Shown here: positions 7,238 through 9,597 of the stretch, in pieces | Position numbering within the stretch: the first letter of the stretch is position 1 | Layout: every line of letters starts with the position of its first letter | DNA from: Escherichia coli | GTDB taxonomy: Bacteria > Pseudomonadota > Gammaproteobacteria > Enterobacterales > Enterobacteriaceae | Direction: 5' to 3' (one strand) | Length of the DNA stretch: 64,000 nucleotides | NCBI RefSeq assembly: GCF_030384885.1 | Contig: NZ_CP128613.1 | The notes under the pieces: model-generated | What the model was told of the DNA's origin: nothing | Seen by the model: the letters and a program-made list of their open reading frames with translations, nothing else | The model's database searches: none | Made by a program: the position numbers and the translations under genes

Positions 7238-7429
7238 CTACTTGGTCAATAGCAGCTTGCCAGCCTGAGTTTTACGGAGCAGATATTCTTGCCCGTCATG
7301 ATCGATAATCAGTTTGCCATCCGGACCTAACAGTGTCTGGCTGGTAATTCGCCGAATGGGCTGCGGGGAGGCGGTCTTGTGATTGGCATCCGTTTCAGGC
7401 GTGAGTTTTCTGCTATCCGTATAACGCAT
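7238..7429 (-). CDS. ydiE: HemP/HmuP-like small protein
   Basis: 63-aa reading frame [63 protein letters not shown] (internal ATG of the 72-aa track ORF); Fur-box-like sequence just upstream. Confidence 0.8.
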
Positions 7430-7560: not shown

Positions 7561-8607
7561 TCAGAAGCGGGTATCAACCGCAGAGGCGAGTTTTTCGACC
7601 AGGCGTTCGGTATCTTCCCAGCCCAGACACGGGTCGGTAATCGATTGACCGTAAGTGAGCGGCTGACCGCCGACGATTTTTTGCGTTCCTTCGCGCAGGA
7701 AACTTTCCGCCATAATTCCAGCAATCGCCGTAGAGCCATTGCGGATTTGCTGACAAATATCCTCACAAACTTCTAACTGGCGACGATGCTGCTTCTGGCA
7801 GTTGCCGTGGCTGAAATCCACCACCAGATGTTCAGGTAAATCAAACTCGTGCAACGTATCGCAGGCAGCGGCGATATCATCCGCATGGTAATTCGGCTTT
7901 TTGCCGCCACGCATAATAATGTGGCCATACGGATTGCCGCTGGTCTGATAGATGGTCATCTGACCATTTTTGTCTGGCGAGAGGAACATATGGCTGGCGC
8001 GGGCTGCGCGGATAGCATCCACGGCAATCCGCGTGTTGCCATCGGTACCATTTTTAAAACCTACCGGACAGGAGAGTGCCGAAGCCATTTCACGGTGGAT
8101 CTGACTTTCGGTAGTACGTGCGCCAATCGCGCCCCAACTGATTAAATCAGCAATAAACTGACCGGTCACCATATCGAGGAACTCAGTCGCGGTAGGGACG
8201 CCCAGCTCATTGACCTGTAAAAGTAATTTGCGCGCCAGCTCCAGACCGTGATTTACCCGATAGCTGCCGTTTAAATCCGGATCGGAGATTAGCCCTTTCC
8301 AGCCGACTACAGTTCGTGGTTTTTCAAAATAGGTGCGCATTACGATTTCCAGCCGTGACTGGTACTGGTTGCGCAGCGACTGCAGACGGGTGGCGTACTC
8401 CATTGCAGCGGTGAGATCGTGGATCGAGCAGGGGCCAATAATGACCAACAGTCGCTTATCTTCACCATTCAGTATTTTTTCAATTCTGCGGCGGGAGTCG
8501 GTGACATGGGTGGCGACGCCAGGCGTTACGGGATACCGTAGCGCGAGTTCGGCGGGCGTTACCAGGCTCTCAATACGCGCAGTACGGAGTTCGTCAGTTC
8601 TGTTCAT
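7561..8607 (-). CDS. aroH: DAHP synthase, tryptophan-sensitive (3-deoxy-7-phosphoheptulonate synthase)
   Basis: 348-aa ORF MNRTDELRTARIESLVTPAELALRYPVT..., class I DAHP synthase; TrpR operator upstream. Confidence 0.96.
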   Translation of the reverse strand: MNRTDELRTARIESLVTPAELALRYPVTPGVATHVTDSRRRIEKILNGEDKRLLVIIGPCSIHDLTAAMEYATRLQSLRNQYQSRLEIVMRTYFEKPRTVVGWKGLISDPDLNGSYRVNHGLELARKLLLQVNELGVPTATEFLDMVTGQFIADLISWGAIGARTTESQIHREMASALSCPVGFKNGTDGNTRIAVDAIRAARASHMFLSPDKNGQMTIYQTSGNPYGHIIMRGGKKPNYHADDIAAACDTLHEFDLPEHLVVDFSHGNCQKQHRRQLEVCEDICQQIRNGSTAIAGIMAESFLREGTQKIVGGQPLTYGQSITDPCLGWEDTERLVEKLASAVDTRF

Positions 8608-8750
8608 TACAAGTCTCAGAAATTTGTTGCTTCTACGGCAGGACTACCGGGAAGTGATGCGCATCACGATAAACCAATCGCAGCTGATTTCAAGTGCGAG
8701 GTGTGTCACACCTCGCCGGGTGGTTAGCATGATAACAAAAAAACAAGTTA

Positions 8751-8772
8751 ATGCACTAGTTCTCTAGTACAT
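8751..8772 (-). promoter_or_regulatory. TrpR operator of aroH promoter (CTAG-containing dyad)
   Basis: minus-strand ATGTACTAGAGAACTAGTGCAT, matching the trp-repressor operator core GTACTAG..CTAGTAC; overlaps ppsR stop codon. Confidence 0.75.
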
Positions 8773-9597
8773 TCGACGACTAAGGCCCATGATATCAAGG
8801 ATCTTGGTGGCAATCTCTTCTACCGAATAATTGGTACTGTTAATCCATGGGATCTGATTCTTACGGTACAACGCTTCCACTTCCGCGACTTCCATCCTGC
8901 ACTGACGAAGCGAGGCATAGCGACTGTTCTCCCGACGTTCCTCGCGAATCGCCGCCAGACGTTCCGGGTCGATAGTCAGGCCGAACAATTTATGCTGAAG
9001 CGGTTTGAGCGACGCGGGTAGCACCAGATTATCCATATCGTCGGCAATAAAGGGGTAGTTTGCCGCGCGGATACCAAATTGCATTGCCAGATACAGACTG
9101 GTGGGGGTTTTACCACAGCGAGAAACGCCGAGCAGGATCACCTGAGCCTGGTCCAGATTGCGCAACGAAATGCCGTCGTCATGGGCAAGGGTGTAATCAA
9201 TCGCCGCAATGCGCGCATCGTATTTATTGAGATTATTAGGGTTAAGGCCATGGGTACGATGAGCAATCGGCGTTGGATCCAGTTTCATCTCTTGCTGTAG
9301 CGGGGCAACCAGCGCCTGAACGATATCCTGGCAAAAGCCTTCACTTTGCAAGATGATGGCGCGAATCTCCGGCAACACGATGGAGTAGAAGACCAGTGGG
9401 CGCACACCTGTCTGGTGATAAATTGCGTCAATCTGATCCTTCACTGCCCGTGCACGGCTCTCATTTTCGACAAACGGCAGCGTAATGCTGCTGATAGTGA
9501 CGGGAAATTGTGACATTACTGCGTGTCCTAATACCTCCGCAGTTATTGCCGTACCATCAGAAATATAAAAAACGTGGCGATCAACAGCATTATCCAT
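8764..9597 (-). CDS. ppsR: PEP synthetase regulatory protein (bifunctional kinase/pyrophosphorylase)
   Basis: 277-aa [30 protein letters not shown]... with P-loop GVSRCGKT; divergent from ppsA. Confidence 0.95.

Follow-up and report, generated by a model that had tools for sequence, protein, structure and literature searches.

The operator through which the tryptophan repressor TrpR controls aroH overlaps the stop codon of ppsR, the gene immediately upstream. This locus raises the question of whether the overlap couples the two genes or is a matter of packing alone. The original prediction, made for a stretch of 64,000 nucleotides of an Escherichia coli genome (hereafter, the window), had proposed a possible point of interference or read-through coupling between PEP-synthase regulation and aromatic biosynthesis. 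The overall best explanation, which we consider very probable, is that the site is the classical operator of the promoter aroHp1, its left half lying in the end of ppsR by compact packing and without a regulatory link between the genes. Sequence features, positions, conservation, synonymous constraint and the absence of a canonical terminator were computed here. The genes and sites at the junction, in window coordinates, are as follows.

8764..9597, minus strand: ppsR (ydiA) coding sequence, 277 amino acids, C-terminus ...RRMY (open reading frame list, RefSeq annotation, Pfam PF03618 on homologues)

8764..8766, minus strand: ppsR stop codon TAG, within the CTAG core of the left half-site (sequence, open reading frame list, RefSeq annotation)

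8751..8772, minus strand: 22-bp TrpR operator dyad ATGTACTAGAGAACTAGTGCAT (K-12 identity, trp operator pattern, conservation in 72/80 species)

8770..8753, minus strand: 18-bp core of the dyad, GTACTAGAGAACTAGTGC, with the dyad centre between 8762 and 8761 (8761.5)

7561..8607, minus strand: aroH coding sequence, Trp-sensitive DAHP synthase, 348 amino acids (open reading frame list, RefSeq annotation)

The two genes lie on the same strand, separated by 156 bp, with ppsA divergently oriented upstream of ppsR and with hemP and selO downstream of aroH. A 2.4-kb part of the window matches E. coli strain 2013C-4282 at 100% identity, and in that strain RefSeq names ppsR and aroH. Identity of at least 99% to the 2.4 kb between positions 7400 and 9800 was found in only 8 of 5,423 complete E. 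coli genomes, the rest falling between 95% and 99%. With so few genomes at this level of identity, the window represents an uncommon E. coli lineage, in which the dyad is nevertheless unchanged.

Read along the minus strand from 8772 to 8751, the dyad is ATGTACTAGAGAACTAGTGCAT, the plus strand letters at 8751-8772 being ATGCACTAGTTCTCTAGTACAT. In its left half, the dyad takes both its outer part and its CTAG core from the final Met-Tyr-stop of ppsR, ATG-TAC-TAG, and the three bases of the stop codon are common to gene and operator. The prediction of an aroH TrpR operator spanning the ppsR stop is borne out by the location of the dyad, the position of the TAG (8766..8764, minus strand), the annotation of both genes, and the identity to E. 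coli K-12 MG1655, which extends to all 22 bases of the dyad, in a junction that aligns with 99% identity over 221 bp. Compared with the aroH region of K-12, the gene pair is the same, and the dyad, the extended -10 element of aroHp1 and the leader are identical or nearly so. The differences amount to four point changes in the flanks, two of them within the T-rich spacer, and none is substantial.

The pattern GTACTAGNNNNCTAGTNC has a single match, with 0 mismatches, in the 64-kb window, where about 5e-4 exact matches are expected by chance (arithmetic on 14 specified bases); a shuffle control allowing up to 2 mismatches gave 0.38. The core GTACTAGAGAACTAGTGC is also the sole match in the window to GNACTAG-N4-CTAGTNC, that is, to inverted GNACT half-sites with CTAG cores. 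The operator of trpEDCBA, GAACTAGTTAACTAGTAC, retains this inverted repeat with its two CTAG cores and equals the aroH core at 14 of 18 positions. It differs in placement, covering the -10 element and the start of its promoter, whereas the aroH dyad covers a -35 region and coding sequence. The trp promoter-operator sequence was verified upstream of trpL in E. coli genomes; the 45-mer directly upstream of trpL shows 95-100% identity in 5,168 of 5,426 genomes. A 34-mer comprising the aroH dyad and its flanks matched 719 of 5,426 genomes, a count that is not a census of the dyad, because polymorphism in the flanks breaks the 28-base search word. A text search of the literature for the literal operator sequence returned 0 matches.

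We take the dyad at 8751-8772 to be the long-known classical TrpR operator of aroHp1. The K-12 aroH operator and promoter are said to have been treated in classical papers by Zurawski in 1981, Grove and Gunsalus in 1987, Kumamoto in 1987, and Klig in 1988, of which the last two reportedly include TrpR footprinting or repression at this operator. To our knowledge, these papers, which predate the ydiA/ppsR naming, do not discuss the overlap with the stop codon. Judged by its sequence, the dyad is the TrpR operator of aroHp1, with TrpR binding taken from the literature on the identical K-12 sequence. TrpR repression, the two promoters and the read counts of the transcription start sites (TSSs) given below likewise come from the literature. 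The operator, TrpR regulation of aroH in E. coli (PMC5343134), and both aroH promoters, which are reportedly described in Hudson et al. 1991, are textbook or database knowledge and already known.

The elements between the dyad and the aroH leader are the following.

8736..8746, minus strand: T-run TTGTTTTTTTG of the aroHp1 spacer, beginning 4 nt past the dyad stem

8729..8737, minus strand: extended -10 element of aroHp1, TGTTATCAT, with TATCAT at 8734..8729 (read from the sequence)

8725/8724, minus strand: aroHp1 TSS as given in databases, K-12 1788317/8 (guide-RNA offsets -70 and -91, mapped via the K-12 alignment)

8696..8717, minus strand: GC-rich hairpin GGCGAGGTGTGACACACCTCGC, -14.2 kcal/mol, between the aroHp1 start and the aroHp2 -35 element

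8666..8693, minus strand: aroHp2 promoter TTGAAA-N16-TATCGT (promoter scan; conserved across Enterobacterales; experimental TSS just downstream)

8658, minus strand: aroHp2 TSS, giving a 51-nt 5' UTR, K-12 1788383/4 (Kim et al. 2012, 414 reads; guide offsets agree)

8654..8667, no strand assigned: CRP-type palindrome GTGATGCGCATCAC over the aroHp2 start, fitting the CRP core TGTGA-N6-TCACA

The names aroHp1 and aroHp2 are database names used in a CRISPRa study, and the guide-RNA offsets in the supplement of that study were mapped through the K-12 alignment. The first promoter adjoins the operator, and the second lies 66 bp further downstream. The extended -10 element TGTTATCAT stands 18 nt after the dyad, and a TAnnnT hexamer is found 17-19 nt past the dyad in 65 of 79 junctions. 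Relative to the start of aroHp1, the operator is centred at about -37, within the core promoter, and relative to that of aroHp2, at -103.5; TrpR can therefore occlude aroHp1 only. The modest range of repression reported for aroH fits this arrangement. The sole aroH TSS in Kim et al. 2012 (M9 glucose, mid-log phase) is at the aroHp2 position, with the upstream sequence ...TTGAAATCAGCAGCGATTGGTTTATCGTGATGCGCA; the published table keeps only TSSs with at least 50% of the strongest signal and is silent on the activity of aroHp1, and its read counts represent one condition and are semi-quantitative.

Several further elements accompany the two promoters. The GC-rich hairpin GGCGAGGTGTGACACACCTCGC begins 7-8 nt past the aroHp1 start and ends right before the aroHp2 -35 element, with no U-tract after it. 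Hairpins that are equally strong and unrelated in sequence occupy the same place in Enterobacter, Lelliottia, Leclercia, Silvania, and Erwinia. The E. coli hairpin could be a 5' stabiliser of the aroHp1 mRNA or a relic of an ancestral ppsR terminator. In ETEC, tabulated CRP ChIP-seq sites include AGTGATGCGCATCACG at aroH, and the same table contains a variant of the hairpin stretch, TGCGAGGTGTGTCACA. The position of the CRP-type site over the start suggests that cAMP-CRP may repress aroHp2. A second CRP-type palindrome (for example, TGTGATGCGCATCACA) is present just upstream of the aroHp2 -35 element in L024, L025, L032, L054, L070, and other loci of the comparative set introduced below; in several genera (Kosakonia, Phytobacter, and others), it stands at the place of the GC-rich hairpin of E. 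coli. The 5' end of the aroHp2 transcript (8630-8654, minus strand) can form a small hairpin, CUUC-C-CGGUA-GUCC-UGCCG-UA-GAAG, at -7.0 kcal/mol, of which RNAalifold on 70 sequences retains a 4-bp core, with compensatory changes at two pairs, including GC to AU in 5 sequences. No RNA family in Rfam matched the junction or the leader at E <= 1.

The comparative set consisted of one genome per species, yielding 80 Enterobacteriaceae loci with PpsR at 90-100% identity; with the window, these give the 81 tabulated junctions. In all 80 loci, aroH lies downstream of ppsR on the same strand, usually 125-170 bp away, and the PpsR C-terminus RRMY is found throughout. The dyad is conserved at the orthologous position: the strict form G.ACT-N8-AGT.C, anchored on Met-Tyr-stop, is present in 72 of the 80 loci, and four near-matches bring the overlap to 76 of 80. 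None of the 72 departs from GTACT on the left side or from CTAGT on the right, whereas the four central bases vary freely. The ppsR stop is TAA at 64 of the 81 junctions and TAG at 16 (Escherichia, the Citrobacter freundii group, Franconibacter, and L033). Klebsiella, with a TAA stop, and Shimwellia, with a TGA stop, show the overlap too.

The final Tyr codon of ppsR, Tyr277, is TAC in 78 of the 80 species, compared with 57-85% for the major codon at the five other invariant Tyr positions, and it ranks in the top 2% of the 189 degenerate codons for invariant residues. Both TAT exceptions, L033 and L036, are loci where the overlap is gone or degenerate, and the neighbouring Arg-Arg codons vary widely. 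The near fixation of TAC, with TAT appearing only where the overlap has been lost, points to a dual constraint, coding and operator, on this codon.

We also considered, and rejected, compensation between the stop codon and the right half-site, with a weaker right half accompanying a TAG stop: GTGC, GTTC, and GTAC all fit GNAC, the outer G is lost only in GTAT, the form of three Escherichia species, and the variants are distributed along phylogenetic lines. As a separate observation, the gap is about 30 bp shorter, at 125-126 bp, in the Citrobacter freundii group (L007, L008, L010-L013, L016), which retains the dyad, the -10 element of aroHp1, and the TATTGT/palindrome but has neither the GC hairpin nor the -35 element of aroHp2. 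Apart from this group, the aroHp2 motif is seen by eye in nearly all genera (alignment and listing).

The few loci in which the overlap has been lost show to which gene the dyad belongs. Two of them, from Kosakonia-like lineages, carry an insertion between ppsR and aroH.

L033, 3332-3695: insertion locus, about 0.2 kb

L040, 3332-4945: insertion locus, about 1.5 kb

In both, an intact GTACTAACAAGCTAGTAC has kept its usual spacing to the aroH -10 element, whereas the end of ppsR, which in L033 now reads TAT TAG, has been left behind. The relocated dyad contains the motif GTACTAA, which L040 also has at the ppsR end, a picture reminiscent of a duplicated junction. In L070, a complete, non-overlapping dyad, GAACTAGTAAGCTAGTAC, lies 20 nt downstream of the ppsR stop. 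In L036 (Intestinirhabdus alba), the stop has become CAA followed by TAA, which makes PpsR one residue longer (...MYQ), and the left half-site is degenerate; in this locus, unrelated sequence has taken the place of the region upstream of aroHp2. Because the dyad stays with aroH after the insertions, its function lies with aroH, and the overlap with ppsR can be dispensed with.

The five outgroup genomes that we compared, from Erwinia, Pantoea, Dickeya, Serratia, and Yersinia, all keep the order ppsA (divergent), ppsR, DAHP synthase, and PpsR homologues in other Enterobacterales families also end in ...M[Y/F]. A dyad at the ppsR stop is absent from all five, the ppsR ends reading ATGTATTAATTAGTG, ATGTACTGACCTCAC, ATGTATTAATTGATC, ATGTTCTGATTCGCG, and ATGTTTTAAAGGTGT, respectively. 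This agrees with a published statement (PMC5343134) that only E. coli and its close relatives place aroH under TrpR control. A block consisting of TTGAAw-N16-TAnnGT, then GTGATnnnnATCAC, and then the UTR hairpin is common to E. coli and the outgroups except Dickeya. The aroHp2 block (8654-8693, minus strand, including the palindrome GTGATGCGCATCAC) is thus conserved more deeply than the TrpR dyad, reaching Erwinia, Pantoea, Serratia, and Yersinia. The simplest reading of these five genomes, we infer, is that aroHp2 is the older promoter and that the TrpR-controlled aroHp1 was added in the ancestor of Enterobacteriaceae. The ppsR codons probably came first and supplied the left half-site, as their sequences suggest; loss of the dyad in the outgroups, instead of gain in Enterobacteriaceae, is formally conceivable.

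Whether the overlap has regulatory consequences depends on what leaves ppsR, which has two weak mapped starts.

9622 and 9627, minus strand: weak ppsR TSSs, 25 and 30 nt upstream of the ATG (Kim et al. 2012, 7 and 8 reads; upstream sequence located in the window)

The original prediction had transcription or translation running out of ppsR through the operator. For transcription, this probably holds, no convincing terminator having been found, and for translation it does not, as ribosomes stop within the left half of the dyad. A strong terminator between ppsR and aroH, which according to the prediction would make the two transcripts independent, was sought by consensus scan, by folding, in Term-seq tables, and across the 81 junctions, and none was found. 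RNA polymerase leaving ppsR must therefore cross the operator, and we infer that transcription begun at ppsR probably continues through it and across both aroH promoters.

Such read-through would matter if ppsR transcription supplied TrpR-independent aroH mRNA or displaced TrpR or RNA polymerase at aroHp1, and PEP-synthase regulation would then be linked to DAHP synthesis. The pair has the outward features of an operon, namely, adjacent co-directional genes with a 156-bp gap and no canonical terminator; the Term-seq tables of Adams et al. 2021 contain no sense 3' end at the junction, five families of Enterobacterales share the ppsA-ppsR-aroH synteny, and DAHP synthase uses PEP as a substrate. 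However, aroH appears not to depend on the ppsR promoter: two promoters serve it directly, and the reads at the ppsR TSSs number 7-8 vs 414 at aroHp2, roughly 50-fold fewer. At this ratio, aroH mRNA would rise by no more than a few per cent if every ppsR transcript read through, and, by the general rules of transcriptional interference, ppsR would fire too rarely to occlude aroHp1 effectively. The layout resembles tandem-promoter interference (promoter occlusion), in that an upstream unit reads into downstream promoters, from ppsR to aroHp1 to aroHp2, but for occlusion to be effective the upstream promoter would have to be the stronger one, and here, at ppsR, it is by far the weaker. Moreover, the dyad still looks functional where insertions of 0.2-1.5 kb part ppsR from aroH, and outgroups have the synteny without the overlap. 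No entries for ppsR or aroH were found in the supplements of SMRT-Cappable-seq and Cappable-seq, the latter searched also by coordinate prefix. Given the read counts and the behaviour of the dyad after insertions, the proposed interference or read-through coupling is unsupported, and we regard a meaningful coupling of this kind as unlikely. Coupling appears to be negligible, and the overlap appears to reflect compact genome packing rather than a regulatory link.

Alternatively, the operator might double as the terminator of ppsR, the dyad hairpin and the U-rich run behind it ending the ppsR mRNA. In the consensus scan, the dyad together with the displaced T-run of the aroHp1 spacer is the sole terminator-like site on the minus strand, and the hairpin, with a 10-bp stem and -10.3 kcal/mol, is followed by AACUUGUUUUUUUG. 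Yet G-C pairs make up only 3 of the 10 in the stem, and a U-tract does not follow the stem directly, AAC and UUG preceding a U7 run that begins 6 nt past it. The regional fold is no better than that of shuffled sequences (z = -0.87), and the terminator criterion is passed by only 2 of the 81 Enterobacteriaceae junctions, the window and one Citrobacter. The Term-seq tables of Adams et al. 2021 hold no sense-strand 3' end for ppsR or aroH. In addition, the UAG lies in the left arm, where a terminating ribosome would be expected to cover the hairpin. In these tables and junctions, neither a mapped 3' end nor a conserved hairpin with U-tract, as expected of an intrinsic terminator, was found, and a terminator role of the dyad, which we consider very improbable, was rejected as weak and not conserved. 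Elsewhere in the region, the same Term-seq table places a strong antisense 3' end inside ppsR (window position ~9394, plus strand; K-12 1787648, minus strand), with no U-tract in the upstream 60 nt.

A roadblock by tryptophan-bound TrpR, which by analogy might stall RNA polymerase about 15-25 nt before the ppsR stop and so generate a stop-less mRNA and tmRNA-tagged, degraded PpsR, is in our view highly improbable. Its geometry fits, the operator lying on the 3' end of a co-directional upstream open reading frame, and at the low level of ppsR transcription single polymerases would lack a trailing partner to push them through. However, TrpR-operator complexes are short-lived, which speaks against a roadblock; the overlap is dispensable in L033, L040, and L070, and there is no obvious physiological logic for lowering PpsR at high tryptophan. 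The precedents are LacI at O3 (Abo et al. 2000) and CcpA/cre roadblocks that feed trans-translation. At the 3' end of lacI, as at ppsR, a repressor site is located on the end of a co-directional upstream gene, before the regulated promoter; there, however, LacI blocks its own gene and SsrA tagging has been shown (Abo et al. 2000), whereas ppsR is unrelated to TrpR and the resemblance is one of geometry. Were such a roadblock real, tryptophan status would feed into the level of PpsR, the regulator of PEP synthase, in the manner of lacI/O3 but on an unrelated gene, and this would be a second natural case of operator-induced trans-translation in E. coli.

The preferred reading, a classical aroHp1 operator packed into the end of ppsR, can be laid out as follows. 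Tryptophan-bound TrpR sits on the -35 region of aroHp1, the upstream aroH promoter, and thereby represses it. The left half-site, GTACTAG, is spelled by the final Tyr codon of ppsR together with its stop, and the TrpR-controlled promoter begins directly at the end of the gene. The arrangement most likely dates from the ancestor of Enterobacteriaceae, in which the ppsR terminus ATG-TAY-TAR would already have resembled a TrpR half-site; a right half, CTAGTAC, arising 6 bp downstream, together with a new -10 element, would have completed aroHp1 upstream of the older aroHp2. Since then, the third position of the Tyr codon and the stop codon would have been under double constraint, from coding and from the operator. 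The few transcripts of ppsR probably extend into aroH, and their contribution would be small compared with those of aroHp2 and derepressed aroHp1.

On present evidence, the overlap is of little importance for the physiology of E. coli, and in Enterobacteriaceae ppsR is a gene without a canonical terminator of its own. The new material consists only of the comparative evidence for exaptation and dual constraint. By this evidence, the junction offers a small, clean example of a regulatory site that was probably born from the last codons of a neighbouring gene and then came to constrain them, at the synonymous position of a Tyr codon and in the choice of stop codon.
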